Positions 23 to 12,188 of a DNA stretch of 12,781 nt are shown here, in pieces. The first letter of the stretch is position 1, and each line of letters opens with the position of its first letter. The notes beneath the pieces are model-generated. The model saw nothing but the letters and a program-made list of their open reading frames with translations. It was not told where the DNA came from and made no database searches. The position numbers and the translations under genes are program-made. The stretch spans positions 1 to 12,781 of the forward strand of contig JBQTGV010000098.1 of NCBI GenBank assembly GCA_052390515.1, given 5' to 3'. This DNA comes from Candidatus Eiseniibacteriota bacterium (GTDB lineage: Bacteria > ARS69).

Positions 23-1402
23 TCAGCCTCGCTCATCCTTCGTGGTTGAAAGCAGCGAGCGCGCGAACATCAGCCCGCCATCGAGATCGGTGAAGACGTC
101 GTCGAGCTGCGCCTCGTACGTACGACGGAGGAGCGCCCCCATCGCGGGACCTGGGGACATCCCGTGGGTGATCAGATGGCGTCCTTGCACGAGCGGGGCA
201 GGGGCCGAGGCCTCCAGCTGGAAGGCGCGCACCCGATCTTCGAACCAGATCGCTGCGCTCGCGTCCCGCGCCGGCGCACCTCGACCGAGCATGTCCGCGT
301 GCGCCAGAGAAGCGAGATCGAGCAGGTTCACCTCCTGCGCCAGCCGCCGGAACGCGCCGATCCCGACCGTGTCCCGAACCTTGTAGAGCGTCGCCGGGGC
401 GAGGTGCCGACGGACGAGACCTGTCACGCGCTGGATCGTCGCCCGATCGATCGCGAGTCGAGTCAGGAACGTCTGCGTCGGATCGACGCCTGCCTCCTCG
501 TGACCGTGCGCGATCCACCGGCCGGCTCGAAGTCCCTCGGTCGCCAGCCGCGTGACGAGCGGCTTGCCAAGGTCGTGACAGAGGGCGGCGAGGAGGAGGC
601 CGAGGTCGTCCGTCCTGGCACGCATGGCCTCCACGGTGTAGCGCGTGTGGGTCCAGACGTCGGCCTCCGGGTGGAAGACCGGGTCCTGGAGCGTGAACAG
701 GAGCGCGAACAGTTCAGGGAACCACGCCCCGCGCCACATCGCATGAAGTGCCCGCAGGCCGGCGCCGACATGCGGTGCCTGAAGCAGCCCGCACAGCTCG
801 TAGCCGATGCGCTCTCCAGAGAGCGAAGACACCGGCTGGCGATGACACAGGGCGAGAGTGTGGACCTCGACCTGGAAGCCAAGCTTCGCGGCGAACCGGC
901 AGGCCCTGAGGGCCCGCAGAGGATCATCACCGAACAGCGGTGGATGCACCGCACGGAGCACGCGGTGCTCGAGGTCCTTGAGCCCGCCGACGAGATCGTG
1001 AATCGCGCCGGTGGCTGGATCCTGCAGGAGCGCGTTGACCGTGAAGTCGCGCCGGAGCACCGCCTCGGCCATCGGCATCGCGGGGTCGGCGGAGATCGAG
1101 AAGTCTCGATGGCCGACGCCGAGCTTCGAGTCGCGACGGGGGAGGCTGACGTCTACGGTCTCCCCGTCCACGGTGACCCTGAGGACGGAGAACGACGCGC
1201 CGACCTCGTCGATCGTCCCGACACGCGCGCAGGCCGCACGCACGCCCGAAGCATCCAGCCCGTACACCTCAACGTCGTCGTCCTTCGGGCTAAGGCCGAG
1301 CAGACGATCGCGCACGCCGCCACCCACGAGGTACGGACGGCCGCCGGCCTCACGCAGGGCGCACACGACAGCGAGGACCGACGGGGACAGCGTGGGGATC
1401 AT
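23..1402 (-). CDS. cca: Class II tRNA nucleotidyltransferase (CCA-adding enzyme / poly(A) polymerase family) with HD domain, 459 aa
   Basis: Motifs LVGGGVRDRLLG..KDDDVEV (motif A), RRDFTVNAL (motif B), DDPLRALRACRFAAKLGF (motif D) and ERIGYEL. HD region QDPVFHPEADVWTHT..ALCHDLGKP..GHEEAG..ADMLGRG. C-terminal PLVQGRHLITHGMSPGPAMG. SD AAAAGGAGG precedes the ATG. Confidence 0.9.
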   Translation of the reverse strand: MIPTLSPSVLAVVCALREAGGRPYLVGGGVRDRLLGLSPKDDDVEVYGLDASGVRAACARVGTIDEVGASFSVLRVTVDGETVDVSLPRRDSKLGVGHRDFSISADPAMPMAEAVLRRDFTVNALLQDPATGAIHDLVGGLKDLEHRVLRAVHPPLFGDDPLRALRACRFAAKLGFQVEVHTLALCHRQPVSSLSGERIGYELCGLLQAPHVGAGLRALHAMWRGAWFPELFALLFTLQDPVFHPEADVWTHTRYTVEAMRARTDDLGLLLAALCHDLGKPLVTRLATEGLRAGRWIAHGHEEAGVDPTQTFLTRLAIDRATIQRVTGLVRRHLAPATLYKVRDTVGIGAFRRLAQEVNLLDLASLAHADMLGRGAPARDASAAIWFEDRVRAFQLEASAPAPLVQGRHLITHGMSPGPAMGALLRRTYEAQLDDVFTDLDGGLMFARSLLSTTKDERG

Positions 1403-2514: not shown

Positions 2515-2919
2515 CTATCGGACCCACGGACCACGCATCAGACGGTCGAGCTTGTCCTCCATCGTTGCCACCGGAGCTTCCTCGGCGCCCTCCTCAAGCA
2601 ATGACGCTGCATGCTCCACCGGGGTGATCGCGGTGCTTCGTGAGACGGGTGCAGGCCCTCCAATGGGCGGCGGCGTCGCCCGTCGGCGCCGCGGCGCCGA
2701 CGCGGCCTGCTGGGCAAGGACCCCACGAAGCTCCGCCTCGGAGAGGACCGCGTCGCCGAGTTCAGGCGCGAGGCAGGTCAGCAGCGCTTCCTTGATGGCT
2801 CGGTTCCGTCGCCGCCGAGGGATGGCGAAGAGCCGCCGGAGAATCGCGACGTCTGCGGCGTTGTCGAGGCTGAAGTAGAGCGTCCGGTAGTGCCGGTCGG
2901 TGGCCTTCGAGGAGTCCAT
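2515..2919 (-). CDS. ParR/StbB-like partition adaptor (putative ribbon-helix-helix), 134 aa
   Basis: Directly downstream of the ParM gene. N-terminal strand-helix-helix pattern RTLYFSLDNAADVAILRRLFAIPRRRRNRAIKEAL, a Pro/Ala linker, and a short amphipathic C-terminal helix MEDKLDRLM. Confidence 0.65.
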   Translation of the reverse strand: MDSSKATDRHYRTLYFSLDNAADVAILRRLFAIPRRRRNRAIKEALLTCLAPELGDAVLSEAELRGVLAQQAASAPRRRRATPPPIGGPAPVSRSTAITPVEHAASLLEEGAEEAPVATMEDKLDRLMRGPWVR

Positions 2920-6412: not shown

Positions 6413-6654
6413 GCGCTGGCGATCATCACGGCCGGGACCGATGTCGGCCTCTGGGCGAGCGCCCTCGGCGTCCGCGTCCGGAGCATGGCGACGATGAGAA
6501 ACGCCAGCACCCCGCCAAGCGCGCTCGTGAGCGTCGCTTCCGCCCAGAGCGCGGGCAGGCAGGCGCGAAGTTGTCCGGTCACCGCCTCGAGGAGGTCGAG
6601 GTGTTCGAGGACCAGACCGGTAGAGAGCGACAGTCCGGCAAAACGGTTAAGCAT
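6409..6654 (-). CDS. Small membrane protein, 81 aa
   Basis: ATG at 6654 preceded by GGAGGA and overlapping the upstream stop. TM-like segment TLTSALGGVLAFLIVAML. ATGA overlap with the next gene. Confidence 0.6.
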   Translation of the reverse strand: MLNRFAGLSLSTGLVLEHLDLLEAVTGQLRACLPALWAEATLTSALGGVLAFLIVAMLRTRTPRALAQRPTSVPAVMIASA

Positions 6655-7957
6655 TGTGGAGTTCCTCCTCTGCGACCTCAGCGGTCCCGGAGGTCGGGGC
6701 AGACGCGACAGGACGTCCGGCGACTTCGGCGTCTGCCTGTTTGAGCCATGCCAGGAGCTGACGGACACGCGGACGACAGTTGGCAGGGACGAGATCCGGC
6801 GCATGCTCGGTGTGCAGCGCGAGGAGCACGTCTTCGATCTCTGGTGCCGAGAACACGTCCCGCAGGCTGGGGCTGAGCGCGAGCACCTGTGCGCCAAGGC
6901 TGTCGTGCGGGACGGCCGAGTGCGATGTCCATGTGCCGTAGTCGTCCTCGTGGTAGCTGAGGATCTTGCCGAGGTCGTGGCTGGCGGCCAGCGTGGCGGC
7001 AAGCGCGCGGTCGCGTGGCAGCGCGTCGGCGGCCAGGCGGTTGATGGCGCGCACCACGGCGAGGGTGTGAGTCGCGAGGCCGGCCTCCACGCGATCGTGC
7101 CCCTTCAGACTGCCGGGCATCTGCCGGGCGCGGAACAGCCACGCGCTGATGTCCTGGGCCAGTCGTGCCGGGACACCTTCCGCCATCAACGCGGCGGCGA
7201 GCGCTGTGTTCGCGGGCCCCCGCACGAGCCGCACGGGGCGATGTCGTGGCGCGAGGGGCATCGCCGTCGGCGGCTTCGCCGGGGGCGCCAGGCGATGGAC
7301 TGCGACAGCCGTAGTCAGGAGGGTCGTGAGGGCAAGGCTCGCGAGGGACCACGAGACGAGCGTCCAGAACAGCGTGCGCAACAACAGGTGTCGAACGCGA
7401 ATGTGCGCGTCTGCCGCGGCCGCGTGCGCCGCCGTCAGCCTGCCGACCAACCGCTCGGCCGCCTGCTCGGGGGACAGCGCGCCCGACTTATCGGGAACGG
7501 GCTGCAGTTCGAGCGTCTCCCGCGTCGTGTCGGCCATCGCGCCCACCACGCTGCGGATCAGCCGCGACATGCGGTTGGAGACGACCTGGGTGTCGGACAG
7601 TGGCCGCGCGCCGCGCGGCACGAATGTCGAGACGCGCTGCGCCTCGCTCCAGGACGTCTGTACGGTCGCCTGAGCGGGACCGAGGATCATCACGGCTTGC
7701 GTGTACGGATCGCTCGGAAACCTCGTCACGGTGCGCATCCACCGCGCGCCGAAGCGATCGAGCGCGATCGCCGCCTCAGCGGCGGAGGCGGTGGCCACGA
7801 GTTGCTCGTTGATCGACGTCTCGGCGGTGCGCATGACGTGATCGACGTTGCCGTCGACGGCGGCGGTGTTGAGCGCGCCCCAGAACGCGCAGGCCGTGGA
7901 CGACATGCCGAAGAAGGACAGGAGGCTCCAGAGGAGCGCTTCAAGGACCGCCGTCAT
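6647..7957 (-). CDS. Membrane-anchored HD-domain phosphohydrolase, 436 aa (TraI_2/MOBH- or YhaM-like motifs)
   Basis: N-terminal hydrophobic segment VLEALLWSLLSFFG and a second TM LFWTLVSWSLASLALTTLLTTAVAV. C-terminal GHDRVEAGLATHTLAV..AASHDLGKIL..HDSLGA..LHTEH..LKQADAE gives the H..HD..H..H..D metal-ligand set. Start placed at MTAV, after GAGGA. Confidence 0.75.
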   Translation of the reverse strand: MTAVLEALLWSLLSFFGMSSTACAFWGALNTAAVDGNVDHVMRTAETSINEQLVATASAAEAAIALDRFGARWMRTVTRFPSDPYTQAVMILGPAQATVQTSWSEAQRVSTFVPRGARPLSDTQVVSNRMSRLIRSVVGAMADTTRETLELQPVPDKSGALSPEQAAERLVGRLTAAHAAAADAHIRVRHLLLRTLFWTLVSWSLASLALTTLLTTAVAVHRLAPPAKPPTAMPLAPRHRPVRLVRGPANTALAAALMAEGVPARLAQDISAWLFRARQMPGSLKGHDRVEAGLATHTLAVVRAINRLAADALPRDRALAATLAASHDLGKILSYHEDDYGTWTSHSAVPHDSLGAQVLALSPSLRDVFSAPEIEDVLLALHTEHAPDLVPANCRPRVRQLLAWLKQADAEVAGRPVASAPTSGTAEVAEEELHNA

Positions 7958-7970
7958 CGCGCGCGCGTCC

Positions 7971-9152
7971 TCATCGCACCCGCGCCTCACCCCACGTGAA
8001 CCGTGAGTCGCCGCGGCCCCCTTGCGGCCCCTTCCGCCGGGCCTCGATCATGGCCCGCCGGGGCCCGATCACGACCGGCCACGGCGTCCAGCGCCACGGT
8101 GCCGTCATTGCGCGCATCAGGCGCACGGCCGTCGCGTGCGCGGCCCTGAATACCACGCGGTGACTCGCGCCCATGTCGCGTGCCACGAGACCGAGTGGGG
8201 TGCGCACGAGCACCGTTGCGAGCGGGGGGATCGCCGGCGGCTGCGCCCACTGCGCCGTCACCGGCGCCTGAAGCGAGAGCACCGACTCGGCGGCGATCTG
8301 CTCAAGCGCGTGCCGCAGGTCGCTCCGAAGCACTTCCAGGTTCTCCGCGATGGCCTGCGTGCGCAGTGCCTCCCGCGCTTGGCGGTAGAGCAGACGGGGG
8401 CTGCCGACGATGCGCGCCACCTCGGGAGGGAGCACGTGGCGATCCACGACGCTCAACCGTGCCAGTTCCTTGCTCTTAAACCACACCCGCCATACGTGGT
8501 ACGCGGTGCGGCCGCATGCCAGCGTGCGGCGACGGGGCCAGCCGTAGCGTGCCGCCATACGTCGAGTGCCGGCGATCAGGAACAACTGGCGCCGCTCGCG
8601 ACCGACGAAGGTCACGCCGTCGGCGTTCCACGAAGAGTCGAGGATCTCGATGAGCTGCCACGTCGCCGGGTCCCAGACCGGCTTGGCGGTCGGCACGTAG
8701 AAGCGCGAAGCGCCCGCAAGCGCGGGCGAGAGGGCGCGGCGCCAAAAGAGGGGAAGGCGACGCTGCCGGCGCACGCCGTCGCACATGCCCTCGGCAAGGA
8801 TCATGTGACACGTGGCGACGATCGCTCCACGGTGCGCGGGATGCGAGGCACTGAGCCGGCCGAGCGGTGAACGTTCGAGGAGCCGGAGCAGCGCGAGCCG
8901 AAACAGCGCGTCGTTCGAGTCCGCCTGGAGGAGCCGATCGAGGCGGGTTGACGCGAAAGCGGCCTCCGTCGACGGGTCGTGGTGCGCGGCCGCGAGGAGT
9001 TCGCGCGCGCGCGTCACGAGCACCTGATTCGCCACGTCCTGGGGCGCGAGGACCCAGTGACCGCCGAGGTTCAGACGCCACGACAGGCATAGCAGCGGAT
9101 ACGGCCAGCAGGCAGCAGCACTCTGCGGGTCGGGTTGCACGGCATATTGCAC
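7971..9152 (-). CDS. Hypothetical protein, 393 aa; first gene of the coupling-protein block
   Basis: GTG start with SD GGAGGTGAGG, protein-like composition, and a stop 13 nt from the next start. No family recognised. Confidence 0.65.
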   Translation of the reverse strand: MQYAVQPDPQSAAACWPYPLLCLSWRLNLGGHWVLAPQDVANQVLVTRARELLAAAHHDPSTEAAFASTRLDRLLQADSNDALFRLALLRLLERSPLGRLSASHPAHRGAIVATCHMILAEGMCDGVRRQRRLPLFWRRALSPALAGASRFYVPTAKPVWDPATWQLIEILDSSWNADGVTFVGRERRQLFLIAGTRRMAARYGWPRRRTLACGRTAYHVWRVWFKSKELARLSVVDRHVLPPEVARIVGSPRLLYRQAREALRTQAIAENLEVLRSDLRHALEQIAAESVLSLQAPVTAQWAQPPAIPPLATVLVRTPLGLVARDMGASHRVVFRAAHATAVRLMRAMTAPWRWTPWPVVIGPRRAMIEARRKGPQGGRGDSRFTWGEARVR

Positions 9153-9256
9153 GCCTCACCTCCGCTCGGCCAGCGACTGCGTCCTGCCTCGTGGCGGTCG
9201 CTGGATGTCTTGTCGAAGTCGGTGCGAGGCCCCGGAGTTCCCGGGGCGCTCGACGG

Positions 9257-9285
9257 AAAAAGCCGCGGCCCGAGGGGGCCGCGGC
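9257..9285 (-). terminator. Intrinsic terminator after the 265-aa gene
   Basis: Minus strand GCCGCGGCCC-CCTC-GGGCCGCGGC followed by TTTTT. Confidence 0.75.
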
Positions 9286-9333
9286 AGATGGTGGGGGTGG
9301 GGAAGGGCCAAGCTGATCCCCCACGTGTAGCTG

Positions 9334-10131
9334 TTAGGCCGTAACCGCCGGGCGAAGACGCCCGGTGTCGATGGCGCGGCCACGCTGAAGATCCTGCTTC
9401 CAGCGGGGCTGCTCTCTGAACGTCCTGCGGTCGAACTGCGTGTCTGCGTCCCGCCACGGATGCCCGATGCCGATCTGGTACTTCTCGCAGATCTGGGCGC
9501 CGAACATCGGACAGTACTGCTCACATCCGGGTTGGTCGCTCAGACACTGAATCCCGCCGTCCTGCGGCGCGTTGTAGCCAGGCGCCACCGCGACGTTCAT
9601 CCGGTGCCCGTTGCAGAACACCAGCCGGAGCCTCGTGTCGAGACTCTCGGCGAACTCCTGGTCGGCCATCCTCAGCTCAGCGAGCGGCCAGTCCGTCAGC
9701 TCCTCGCCGACGTGCGGTCCCTCGAGAACCTCGATGGTCGCCTTGCGCCCCTCGGCCCAGCGAACGAGCTGAACCACCGTGGACTCAGCCACGTCCATGC
9801 TGGCCGGGAGAAAGGGCGGCTTCGGGAGCACGTAGGGCGGAAGCCCCGCGCTCTCGACCACCCGCTTCCGCGCCCCGAAGATCTGCGATCGCAAGGCTTC
9901 GAGCCCGCCGTGCTCCTGCACGACCTGCTCGCCCTCTCTGACCGAGCCCCCGAGGCTCAGAAGGTCTCGCCGCAACGACTCCGTTGACCGGTACCCGTTG
10001 CCGACGATGTCGCCGACACAGATGCCGTACAGGAGCACGCTCGCCGCCCGCCGGATGTCCTCGACGACGCGACTGGGTGCCTTCAGCACCCCAGCGAGAA
10101 TCGCCCACACATCGATGAATGCGTCCCACAT
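9334..10131 (-). CDS. Hypothetical protein with a C-terminal Cys cluster, 265 aa
   Basis: SD AAGGAGGGG before the ATG. CLSDQPGCEQYCPMFGAQIC gives C-x6-C-x3-C-x7-C. Confidence 0.8.
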   Translation of the reverse strand: MWDAFIDVWAILAGVLKAPSRVVEDIRRAASVLLYGICVGDIVGNGYRSTESLRRDLLSLGGSVREGEQVVQEHGGLEALRSQIFGARKRVVESAGLPPYVLPKPPFLPASMDVAESTVVQLVRWAEGRKATIEVLEGPHVGEELTDWPLAELRMADQEFAESLDTRLRLVFCNGHRMNVAVAPGYNAPQDGGIQCLSDQPGCEQYCPMFGAQICEKYQIGIGHPWRDADTQFDRRTFREQPRWKQDLQRGRAIDTGRLRPAVTA

Positions 10132-10280
10132 GGCCCCTCCTTCTCGGCCCTCCCCACACTGCTACCTGCCAGCCCAAGTGGGGAGGCGAGCCGGAGGGGT
10201 TGGGCCGCGATGCCCCGAAGGGCACGACGTCCTTCCCCACCTCCCCGGTCGAGCCTCAACGGCCGCTCGACCGGTTCCTG

Positions 10281-10298
10281 ATCCGATTGTCAAAGAAC
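10281..10298 (-). promoter_or_regulatory. boxA-like Nus antitermination element (unit 3)
   Basis: Minus strand GTTCTTTGACAATCGGAT resembles rrn boxA (GYTCTTTRAMAA). Confidence 0.65.
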
Positions 10299-10375
10299 TG
10301 TGGCGGCGCGACGACCGCGCCGCCGAAAAGGGGAGGCAGAGGGGCCTAGGTTCTACCTCTCCCGCCTGCGCGCAC

Positions 10376-11374
10376 CTACCGCGCTGACGACGCCTTGCTC
10401 GGGCCTGCGCCCATGACAAGACGGCGCGCCACCTCAAGGGTGGCCTGCAACTGCGAGACCTCGAGACCGAAACGCTGCGCTTCCGTCTCGGCCAACCGCC
10501 GAGCCTGCCACCGATCGACCGCGACCGGCCGATCACCCTCCAGTCGCACGACGTCCGCGCGAATGGGGGGCGTGAGGTAACCGACGATCGTGAGCCACGC
10601 GAGGGCGGCCCACGGCTCGTCCGGCGCTCGACTCGGGAACCGCTGATCCCGAACGAGCCCCTCGAGCAGGTCGAGCATGCGGCGCTTCACCGCCGCACGC
10701 CGGGCGATGGTCGGCGAGTAGTCACCCAAGAGCTTGCGGGCGACGTCCTCACTGACCTCGAGACCCTTGATCTCGTACCGCAAGGTGTCCGGATCCCCGT
10801 CCAGCGCCTGCCGCTTCACCGACGCCATCAGGATGATCCGCGCCAGGCCGCGAGCGGCCTGGAAGCCACGCTCAAGGCCTTCCGCGTTGGGGAGGTACTT
10901 CGCCTCCTTACCGAAGAGACGCTTGAGCTGCCGGTCGGAGAGCTGCGCCGCGAAGGCGAGCTCGCCGCGCCCGACCTCACTGGGCTCGACATCGAGCCCG
11001 GCGAGGGCCCGCAACGCCTTCGCTCCTGCGACCGTGTCCTTGGCCGCGACTGCGACCTTGAGCCCGATCGCCGACTGCTGGAGCCTGGACGCTGCGGAGA
11101 TGAGCTGGTCCTTTCGCTTCTCGCGACGCTCACGTTCCCACGCACGAAGCACGTACTCCGCTTCGGGCGGCAGGTTGAGCATGGGCGCCACGCTCCCGTG
11201 CGCGGACGCTGGGGCTTCGATCCCCAGACGATCGCAGACCCGGAGGAATGCACGACGCACACGGCGCGTCGGCCTCCGAATCCCGAGCTCACGGGCGAGC
11301 TGCTGAACTCGCTGCAACGGGTCGCCCCCTTCCGGGAGCGCCTGCATCAACTGCTCTGCGAGCGCGTTGATCAT
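10376..11374 (-). CDS. Hypothetical, likely alpha-helical protein, 332 aa
   Basis: Start placed at MINALAEQL after GAGGGGGG. Ala/Leu/Arg/Glu-rich composition. No family recognised. Confidence 0.8.
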   Translation of the reverse strand: MINALAEQLMQALPEGGDPLQRVQQLARELGIRRPTRRVRRAFLRVCDRLGIEAPASAHGSVAPMLNLPPEAEYVLRAWERERREKRKDQLISAASRLQQSAIGLKVAVAAKDTVAGAKALRALAGLDVEPSEVGRGELAFAAQLSDRQLKRLFGKEAKYLPNAEGLERGFQAARGLARIILMASVKRQALDGDPDTLRYEIKGLEVSEDVARKLLGDYSPTIARRAAVKRRMLDLLEGLVRDQRFPSRAPDEPWAALAWLTIVGYLTPPIRADVVRLEGDRPVAVDRWQARRLAETEAQRFGLEVSQLQATLEVARRLVMGAGPSKASSAR

Positions 11375-11543
11375 GATGCTGTTCCCCCCTCGTGTTCGGC
11401 CCCCCCCCCCACCGGCCATGAGGACGTGCGCAATGGCGTACGACGGCGAAGAAAAAGAGGGCGAGGGCCGAACACGAGGGGACCCTGATCACACACAGGG
11501 AACCCCTCTGCCAGATCGGCGTTCTTGCGGAACGCCGATTCCT

Positions 11544-11561
11544 ATCCAGTTATCAAAGAGC
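11544..11561 (-). promoter_or_regulatory. boxA-like element (unit 2)
   Basis: Minus strand GCTCTTTGATAACTGGAT, preceded by a small hairpin GACGC-TGCAG-GCGTC (11564-11578). Confidence 0.65.
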
Positions 11562-11751
11562 CCGACGCCTGCAGCGTCCTGTCCTACCGTACGCGATCGC
11601 GATGCGGGGTGAGCGCGTCTCTGGGATCACTCCCCATCGCGTTCGTGAGCCCGATGCTGCGGCCCCATGGCGGTGTGATCCGCCACGGGGCCGTCGAGTG
11701 GTGGGGCAGAAGGGGCCGATCAAGGTTCTGCCCACCGGGTGCGACTTCGTA

Positions 11752-12018
11752 TCACTGGGCCGAGAGCAGCTGCTTGAGACGCTGGACGGCCACGTACTTC
11801 GCGGCCGCGGCGTCCCGTCGCGCCTGCTGCTCGGCGGTGTCCTCGACGAGCGGCTCGTCGAGCGTGAACCGCTCGGCGAGGAACGTCCCGCCGATGCAGT
11901 CCACCGAGTCGAGTGCCCACTGGCGATGTCCGACGTGCGTGAGCAGCAGCGTCTCTCCGGTCGGCTGAAGGACGGCACGAAAGCCGCCCTGAACTTCGTG
12001 GAACTCCACCGTCTGCAT
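11752..12018 (-). CDS. Hypothetical protein, 88 aa
   Basis: MQTVEFHEVQGG..KQLLSAQ, with SD GGGGGAGGA just upstream of the ATG at 12018. Confidence 0.75.
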   Translation of the reverse strand: MQTVEFHEVQGGFRAVLQPTGETLLLTHVGHRQWALDSVDCIGGTFLAERFTLDEPLVEDTAEQQARRDAAAAKYVAVQRLKQLLSAQ

Positions 12019-12171
12019 GTTCCTCCCCCTTCCCGGCCCCAATCGCAACGGCAGAGTCCTCCAGACGATGCAGTAGGCCGACAATCGAACGTGTGGGGGC
12101 CGGGAGAGCGGAAGGCCCCTGGAAGTACTCACAGGGTGTCCCCTTCTGCCCAGTCGGCGCCGATGGCGCCG

Positions 12172-12188
12172 ACGACTTATCAAAGAGC
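12172..12188 (-). promoter_or_regulatory. boxA-like element (unit 1)
   Basis: Minus strand GCTCTTTGATAAGTCGT. Confidence 0.6.

Follow-up and report, generated by a model that had tools for sequence, protein, structure and literature searches.

boxA-like words, predicted leader helices and leader-trailer complementarity frame three genes of a putative conjugative element from Candidatus Eiseniibacteriota

Control by Nus factors through boxA is textbook knowledge for ribosomal RNA (rrn) operons and lambdoid phages, and to our knowledge only a handful of cellular mRNA targets have been described. Structured elements of other kinds are known from plasmids: single-stranded DNA (ssDNA) promoters (Frpo/ssi) recur before the leading-region genes of F and IncI plasmids (ColIb), and in the IncI-alpha/IncB repZ leader a helix that sequesters the ribosome-binding site is freed by distal pairing. 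Here we describe a locus that shares traits with all of these. It lies in a window (the whole stretch of DNA analysed, 12,781 nt) that is an entire 12.8-kb contig (JBQTGV010000098.1) of a metagenome-assembled genome (MAG, 70% GC) of Candidatus Eiseniibacteriota and that, judged by its genes, is part of a conjugative element. On its minus strand, three consecutive units with apparently unrelated open reading frames (ORFs) share one frame in the same order, i.e. a boxA-like word, a hairpin (H1), a purine-rich arm, a second hairpin (H2), a long helix (H3) over the Shine-Dalgarno site, the ORF, an anti-arm complementary to the arm, and a hairpin. The consulted sections of Baniulyte et al. (2017) give the boxA consensus as GYTCTTTAANA, and state that both translation and Rho termination are under the control of boxA in mRNA leaders (suhB, and lambda N, with nutL about 200 nt away), that Nus-mediated looping has been proposed to control translation, and that RNase III modulates this in lambda. 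The consulted part of Warner et al. (2023) has boxA and the 16S leader-trailer helix cooperating in 16S biogenesis, and the boxA cases named in that of a 2025 review of Rho termination are rrn, lambda, hisG and suhB.

With a probability of about 0.5, we consider the three spacers to be paralogous cis-acting RNA modules in which the loading of Nus factors and the masking of translation would be joined to a leader-trailer pairing of the pre-rRNA kind. The frame resembles the rrn leader (boxB, boxA, boxC) in having a hairpin, 2-4 nt and a boxA word nearly identical to that of the rrn operons of its family, and it resembles the 16S leader-trailer helix in that a strand soon after boxA complements a strand just past the enclosed product. 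It differs from rrn in enclosing protein ORFs with a masked Shine-Dalgarno site, in showing no recognisable boxC, in its helix of 10-13 bp instead of a long RNase III stem, and in the local hairpin that competes for the trailer strand. The lambda nutL-N and suhB leaders likewise have a boxA, a hairpin and a Shine-Dalgarno site 100-200 nt downstream behind a structured region; however, the H1 stems and loops (3-10 nt) of the window vary among units, there are three tandem copies, and the host is not an enterobacterium. Since H1 differs in this way, it is unlikely that one N-like protein binds all three as boxB, and the scan of the window's ORFs found no N-like gene. As with Frpo/ssi, repeated structured elements stand ahead of several unrelated small genes of a conjugative element, yet the window has no -10/-35 pair in a long stem and its features concern Shine-Dalgarno masking and the trailer, i.e. 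RNA. The repZ leader shares a helix covering the Shine-Dalgarno site and a distal complementary segment able to switch it, whereas in the window the pairing partner lies beyond the ORF and a boxA is present, and the leader peptide is a feature of repZ. A full-text literature search, which was not exhaustive and did not include supplements, returned no description of boxA-headed frames around plasmid genes. An earlier reading made from the letters alone (hereafter the sequence-only reading), which had listed the elements of the three units at positions that were all found again exactly on the minus strand, knew of no described element with this layout. That was too strong given the rrn leader with its leader-trailer helix and lambda nutL-N as close functional analogues, and the frame is best described as a variant of boxA/Nus leader control joined to a leader-trailer design like that of rRNA.

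The word at the head of each unit is overrepresented in the window: TCTTTGAYAA occurs three times against 0.20 expected, a count reached by two of 200 shuffles. The 11-nt boxA pattern GNTCTTTGANA has four matches on both strands of the 4.27-Mb genome, three of them in the window, and the reversed control has three. When the genome was scanned for a boxA-like word followed by a hairpin of at least 8 bp and a purine tract, 79 loose motifs were found, 11 of them with such a hairpin next, and the full combination was present at the three sites of the window alone; purines in the following 11 nt numbered 9-10 at these sites, and 9 at one other site of the genome with a poor motif. The core T3 C4 T5 T6 T7 and A11 is present at the three sites of the window and was invariant in all 15 leaders aligned, in which positions 8-10 varied, and this fits the published consensus. 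No rRNA operon is assembled in the MAG of the window. In four genomes of its family, the rrn leaders consist of a promoter (TTGACT-17-TAGATT type), a hairpin, a 3-nt spacer and (G/A)TCTTT(G/C)AAAA, which in two of the four (G001 and G004) continues with TCGAGAG; unit 3 has a hairpin, a 4-nt spacer and then GTTCTTTGACAATCGA. Position 8 is G in the rrn leaders and spacers examined and likewise in the boxA words of the window, and GTTCTTTGACAA and GCTCTTTGACAA, which differ by C/T at position 2, are boxA candidates in the 16S-23S spacers of two unrelated genomes. The extra hairpin 2-4 nt upstream of boxA is found on the sense strand of the intergenic region in units 2 and 3, and in the window no clear hairpin stands ahead of the unit 1 boxA. 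The same genome has a NusB gene (Pfam match, E 3.4e-33).

The motif also contains TTGAYA (TTGACA or TTGATA), so that a -35 box had to be considered. Together with the two hairpins that score as terminator-like, it could be taken to indicate ordinary punctuation, each gene having its own promoter and terminator and the arm matches being a by-product of G-rich and C-rich spacers. We regard this as unlikely, given that a sigma-70 promoter scan of the window returned no promoter-like site and no -10 at 16-18 nt from TTGAYA, that the rrn promoters of the family are of the TTGACT-17-TAGATT type, that the hexamer is absent from nine of nine unit 2 leaders of relatives which retain the GCTCTTT core, and that the complementarity limited to cognate arms is rare in shuffles and in the genome. 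The -35 box was therefore rejected. Considering the conserved core, the likeness to the family rrn leaders, the missing -10, the loss of TTGAYA and the presence of NusB, a putative boxA is the best reading of the motif, which may at the same time serve as the T-run of the hairpin before it; the boxA label of the sequence-only reading was thus a reasonable one, with both motif and preceding hairpin mirroring the rrn leaders of the window's own family.

Three further sites touch on this motif. The sole other match to the boxA pattern in the genome (G000:C103:22424-22434; L004 about 1499-1540) reads GATCTTTGACA, of the family rrn type, with a 7-bp hairpin at once downstream; it lies about 150 nt upstream of the gene of an XRE-type helix-turn-helix regulator and may be another boxA leader. 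In relative L017 (about 470-520), about 25 nt are missing, so that the boxA and the spacer before the H1 of unit 3 are gone, and the short direct repeats AACGG/AACCGG flank the site; the loss of boxA could be natural or stem from the assembly. About 30 nt upstream of the unit 2 boxA, a TACNNT hexamer (window about 11583-11588; L005 3762-3767) stands in the same column in nine of nine aligned rows, its middle varying as in a -10 element and with no recognisable -35, within a 150-nt stretch common to all the upstream architectures described below.

The leader helices H1, H2 and H3 were predicted by RNAalifold in all three units, with two-sided changes in 3 of 58, 5 of 52 and 5 of 52 pairs (individual changes are in Table 1). 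In unit 1 the 3′ strand of H3 (12022-12040) contains the Shine-Dalgarno site. A covariance model built from units 1 and 2 only detected nine of nine intact unit 3 leaders at full length, with 15.6-17.6 bits and E values of 0.003-0.013. In the alignment fitted to the model 93.4% of the cells pair, two-sided changes are seen in 8 of the 14 H1/H2 pairs, and the covariation score was 0.429 against 0.154 in shuffles (0 of 500 reached 0.429) and 0.01-0.07 with slid partners, a score that is biased towards structure by the fitting of the alignment to the structure model. Compensatory pairs in H1, H2 and H3 and a score above all 500 shuffles agree with the covariation looked for under the claim of the sequence-only reading that a structured frame under selection is common to three unrelated ORFs, a claim borne out by the compensatory changes and by the persistence of the frame in relatives. 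Its statement that the stem sequences mostly differ holds for the H1 stems and loops and fails for units 1 and 2, which are nearly alike in boxA, arm and H2 with a mean column identity of 79%, and are thus sequence paralogs and not only structural look-alikes. No known family was matched: an Rfam scan of the window gave nothing at the gathering threshold, and the six matches at E <= 1 were all microRNA-precursor models on long hairpins, the best scoring 23-32 bits against thresholds of 65-100.

One-sided changes that keep G-U wobbles are also seen, with six U-G and two U-A at columns 29/52 of unit 3, and six C-G and four U-G at columns 101/174 of unit 2. Since a G-U pair on the sense strand corresponds to an A-C mismatch on the other strand, these changes suggest that it is the sense-strand RNA that folds. 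It also bears on the idea that the structures act in ssDNA during conjugative transfer, as leading-region ssDNA promoters or priming sites for the early expression of three establishment genes. The setting would suit such a role, with genes for a coupling protein, a lytic transglycosylase and a ParM-like actin nearby, three repeated structured elements ahead of small genes of unassigned function, and a -35-like hexamer. However, that word lies outside the stems, which are short (5-17 bp), and lacks a -10 partner, the layout centres on the Shine-Dalgarno site and on trailer pairing, which are relevant only in RNA, and one-sided changes of the G-U type are tolerated, all of which makes an action in ssDNA quite improbable.

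Two observations were made in the loop of the unit 2 H3. An ATG in its 3′ half is conserved (window 11372-11419; relatives, e.g. L005 3969-4003) and has no Shine-Dalgarno site before it; in relatives it opens an 11-codon frame with a stop overlapping the unit 2 start (ATGA), and in the window it shares the reading frame of unit 2. A run of 11 G at 11403-11413 of the window, within the 3′ portion of the loop, is found in the lineage of the window only and may cause sequencing or assembly drop-outs in RNA libraries.

The arm begins 1-4 nt past H1 and the pyrimidine-rich anti-arm lies 28-37 nt past the stop codon. RNAduplex applied to whole leaders and trailers was uninformative, since huge interior loops let shuffles equal the real pairs, and the longest exact complement was used in its place. 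It measured 12, 10 and 11 nt in the cognate pairs of units 1, 2 and 3 and 7-8 nt in all six non-cognate pairs. Among 1191 ORFs of the genome preceded by a Shine-Dalgarno site, complements of at least 10 nt were found in 69 (5.8%), of 11 nt in 20 (1.7%) and of 12 nt in 7 (0.6%). The pairing of arm and anti-arm is thus statistically real and unit-specific. In each unit the anti-arm doubles as the 3′ strand of a local trailer hairpin, the 5′ strand of which resembles the arm. The local trailer pairing (-19.3, -19.7 and -15.6 kcal/mol) is weaker than the arm:anti-arm duplex in units 1-3, as is that of the arm with the 5′ strand of H3 (-16.6, -22.3 and -27.9 kcal/mol); the purine arm is the best partner of a trailer strand that otherwise closes the local 3′ hairpin. 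When the three units are compared with each other, arm, trailer 5′ strand and anti-arm have changed together in each, which suggests two alternative helices sharing the anti-arm.

These same pairings leave room for another explanation, in which the leaders would serve translational and stability control only, with H3 toggled by an RNA-binding protein of the element, an antisense RNA or alternative pairings; the boxA look-alike would be an incidental pyrimidine tract in weak pairing with the arm, and Nus factors would have no role. It is possible, at a low probability. The helices that sequester the Shine-Dalgarno site do carry compensatory changes, the pairing of the arm with the H3 5′ strand at the energies given above would make a plausible ON/OFF toggle, and in units 1 and 2 RNAalifold pairs the CUCUUU of boxA with the arm. 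That last pairing, however, uses G-U pairs and reaches only -8 to -11.5 kcal/mol, and the invariant positions are those of the boxA core and not those needed to pair with the arm. Moreover, the layout of hairpin, spacer and boxA copies the rrn leader of the family, and Pfam and PHROGs scans identified no RNA-binding protein in the window.

In regards to conservation, we compared 13 related metagenomic loci, two of which (L006 and L033) come from genome G031, flagged as unpublished; it supplies one of ten unit 2 leaders and one of the four loci lacking unit 1, and no conclusion rests on it alone. The layout is kept in all 13, with conserved leaders and trailers, and the spacers are conserved to the same degree as the genes, with a nucleotide identity between window and relatives of 69-75% in the spacers and 72-74% in coding DNA; the spacer before the 393-aa ORF (p393) that follows unit 3, which has no frame, is only 62-63% identical. 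In the window this spacer (9153-9256) holds hairpins and a degenerate TTCGACAA word and lacks a boxA core, arm and anti-arm; in relatives it has a 15-bp hairpin instead, and the frame ends after unit 3. Homologs of the 332-aa protein of unit 2, 65-69% identical, come from soil and other metagenomes; two of them are labelled Candidatus Rokuibacteriota. The gene order, namely the SLT lytic transglycosylase gene, unit 1 where present, unit 2, unit 3, p393 and the HD-domain gene, is constant in every related locus that reaches those genes. Unit 1, whose protein has a 37-38% identical homolog in L015 and L016, forms a block that starts about 35 nt ahead of its boxA and ends just past its trailer hairpin; the window, L015 and L016 have this block, and L005, L006, L008 and L013 lack it. 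In L007 and L012 the upstream DNA is unrelated, and in all three upstream architectures the common sequence begins near one place, some 110 nt ahead of the unit 2 boxA.

No other gene with the frame was found in the flanks of the relatives, and a motif scan and a covariance-model search found no further copies in the genome of the window. Among 151 sampled genomes of the phylum of G031, the covariance model gave three matches at E <= 0.01: the locus already known, and two that fall within coding repeats or a coding gene and were rejected as false. A degenerate boxA pattern had 65 matches in G031 against 65 for the reversed control. A protein search of 12 genomes of the window's phylum found unit 2 in one, its own, a tblastn search of sequenced plasmids with units 2 and 3 gave no match, and neither did a 31-nt pattern of the unit 3 leader in viral contigs (0 matches). 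Homologous units were thus found as a layout kept among related loci and not around other cargo ORFs, and the predicted RNA architecture is real, conserved and confined to one lineage of elements. The idea that the units are interchangeable cargo is mostly unsupported, as the order is fixed, unit 1 alone is variable and no further copies were found.

The presence or absence of unit 1 is the only sign of cassette behaviour. It would fit mobile gene cassettes in which arm and anti-arm are recombination sites (integron-attC-like or inverted repeats) for the insertion and excision of ORFs, since the whole unit is present in three elements and absent from four, and since the three upstream architectures break near one place. 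Even so, the order of units 2 and 3 does not vary, the arms are internal to the module and do not mark the boundaries of the indel, inverted repeats would invert and not excise, no recombinase or integrase was found among the 10 ORFs scanned, and no other copies were found in the genome of the window, so that we hold this origin of the arms to be highly improbable.

Nine sequencing runs from six studies contain near-identical DNA, with at least half of the words sampled; those with a label are metagenomes of groundwater, estuary and soil, and one of the nine runs may be the source of the window. RNA-library contigs from four soil studies were also found that are 99-100% identical to the three ORFs. 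Their ends fall at 12026 and 12023 for unit 1 (ATG at 12018), at 11384 and 11374 for unit 2 (ATG at 11374) and at 9298 and 9301 for unit 3 (trailer hairpin end at 9297), the paired ends coming from different studies with no loose ends among those listed there, and one contig ends at 11706, within the unit 1 trailer hairpin. The coinciding ends are a weak hint of defined mRNA ends. None of the RNA-library contigs listed covers any leader or spacer, which, given the low depth, the GC-rich hairpins and the use of contigs only, is not counted as evidence. The DNA in nine runs and the RNA contigs for all three ORFs indicate that the element is common enough to study.

The mechanism that we favour, in which the three spacers are boxA-headed modules with rRNA-like pairing, starts from what the sequences show, i.e. 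conserved motifs, local helices that covary, and arms complementary to their cognate anti-arms. The modules would sit in the transcript or transcripts of the gene cluster of the conjugative element. The rrn-type boxA, which in units 2 and 3 follows a hairpin, would load host NusB/S10 and other Nus factors onto RNA polymerase, and the modified polymerase would then cross 244-377 nt of untranslated, hairpin-rich RNA without Rho- or hairpin-dependent termination. By hiding the Shine-Dalgarno site, H3, the pairing of which is predicted and carries compensatory changes, would keep the cistron masked until it is opened or cut. Meanwhile the boxA-Nus tether would hold the arm near the polymerase, where it could pair with the emerging trailer as in the leader-trailer helix of pre-rRNA, and this pairing may couple completion of the cistron to the formation of its 3′ end, to processing or to a switch in translation. 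All of these actions, from Nus binding and antitermination to processing and switching, are predictions of this design. [quoted passage not shown] Rut-like C-rich tracts were also considered (C minus G of 13-18 per 50 nt, about the 99th percentile) and were dismissed as too weak, since G is not depleted.

Several points weigh against the proposed mechanism. In the window and its relatives alike, the leader-trailer helix has 10-13 contiguous bp, or about 14-16 bp if mismatches are allowed, which is too short for a classical RNase III site of about two turns. The strands covary among the three paralogous units; among orthologs no compensation is seen: for unit 2, three of the six loci in which both strands are readable have an extra A in the arm that is uncompensated in the anti-arm, and the orthologs of unit 3 show no informative arm/anti-arm variation, L011 having one uncompensated change. 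The arms are G-rich and the anti-arms C-rich, they resemble the Shine-Dalgarno strand and its H3 partner, and the anti-arm pairs about equally well with the Shine-Dalgarno strand, so that part of the complementarity may derive from H3. As for boxA, it is short, positions 8-9 are TC or CA in the unit 2 relatives, unlike the rrn types, and the word in units 2 and 3 could be the mere T-run of a terminator-like hairpin, given that the terminator scan called 10302-10324 plus its tail a terminator. The contig may also be mis-binned, in which case the comparison with the family rrn leaders may miss the true host. Finally, the ends of the RNA-library contigs may reflect GC-rich hairpins at low depth instead of RNA ends.

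The coordinates of all the features are given in Table 1. The main genes of the window, according to the ORF listing and the family scans, are all on the minus strand, where the SLT lytic transglycosylase gene is followed by unit 1 (88 aa), unit 2 (332 aa) and unit 3 (265 aa), then by p393, an HD-domain protein, a VirD4/TraG-type coupling protein (T4CP), a ParM-like actin, a small ORF and a gene like those of CCA-adding enzymes or poly(A) polymerases. The ORFs of units 1-3 had no match in Pfam or PHROGs; in addition, the 265-aa protein of unit 3 had no usable match in the ESM Atlas, and the AlphaFold model of the 332-aa protein of unit 2 (pLDDT 75.8) had no Foldseek match in the PDB at E <= 0.001.

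Table 1. Positions of the frame elements and ORFs of the three units in the window
Unit	Feature	Position	Strand	Details and evidence
1	boxA-like word GCTCTTTGATAA	12177..12188	-	motif counts; same core in L015 and L016
1	H1, 9 bp, 3-nt loop	12153..12173	-	compensatory change U-A to C-G in L015 and L016 (columns 20/38)
1	purine arm	12140..12151	-	complement of 11704-11715; 12 nt exact; 0/200 shuffles; duplex -27.5 kcal/mol
1	H2	12117..12136	-	RNAalifold alignment; covariance-model alignment
1	H3, long helix	12022..12115	-	compensatory change A-U to C-G (columns 91/161)
1	ORF, 88 aa, without known family	11752..12018	-	Pfam and PHROGs without match
1	trailer hairpin, 3′ strand overlapping anti-arm 11704-11715	11700..11736	-	fold; relatives
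1	hairpin after the unit, 13 bp	11661..11692	-	relatives have a hairpin of other sequence in the same place
2	hairpin directly before boxA (boxB-like position)	11564..11578	-	kept in relatives, loop differs
2	boxA-like word	11550..11561	-	motif counts; relatives keep GCTCTTT core, positions 8-10 vary
2	H1, 10 bp	11515..11539	-	alignment and covariance model
2	purine arm	11503..11512	-	complement of 10335-10344; 10 nt; 3/200 shuffles; -25.6 kcal/mol
2	H2	11483..11500	-	alignment and covariance model
2	H3, 17 bp perfect, 3′ strand into Shine-Dalgarno site	11384..11481	-	compensatory changes (columns 95/180 and 104/171)
2	ORF, 332 aa, without known family or fold match	10376..11374	-	Pfam, PHROGs and Foldseek without match
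2	trailer hairpin (anti-arm 10335-10344), then T-run	10330..10362	-	fold; relatives
3	hairpin directly before boxA (terminator-like or boxB-like)	10302..10324	-	terminator scan; relatives
3	boxA-like word GTTCTTTGACAA	10287..10298	-	motif counts; invariant across 8 relatives
3	H1, 10 bp, 10-nt loop	10245..10274	-	A-U to C-G (columns 32/49); U-G and U-A (columns 29/52)
3	purine arm	10231..10241	-	complement of 9296-9306; 11 nt; 3/200 shuffles; -32.3 kcal/mol
3	H2	10206..10229	-	U-A, C-G and G-C (columns 80/87)
3	H3 over Shine-Dalgarno site	10134..10199	-	fold; RNAalifold alignment
3	ORF, 265 aa, without known family	9334..10131	-	Pfam, PHROGs and ESM Atlas without match
3	trailer hairpin with anti-arm 9296-9306	9296..9324	-	relatives
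3	intrinsic-terminator-like hairpin with T5 run, after the unit	9257..9285	-	terminator scan

Among the neighbouring genes, that at 23-1402 (minus strand) encodes a protein with a PolyA_pol head plus an HD domain, of the CCA-adding or poly(A) polymerase type, and that at 6647-7990 (minus strand) the second HD-domain protein of the element. RNA 3′-end enzymes of the element may be connected with the conserved 3′ hairpins of its genes. Behind the ParM-like gene, a 134-aa ORF (2515-2919, minus strand) with an N-terminal strand-helix pattern, arginine runs and no match in Pfam or PHROGs looks like a ParR-type adaptor, as judged by position and composition alone.

If the proposed reading is true, a conjugative element of uncultured bacteria would have taken over for its protein genes the logic of an rRNA operon. 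Such an element would also offer, in three paralogous copies with matched arms, a compact natural system for studying how tethering through boxA leads to long-range RNA pairing, the role of such tethering being an open point in ribosome biogenesis.

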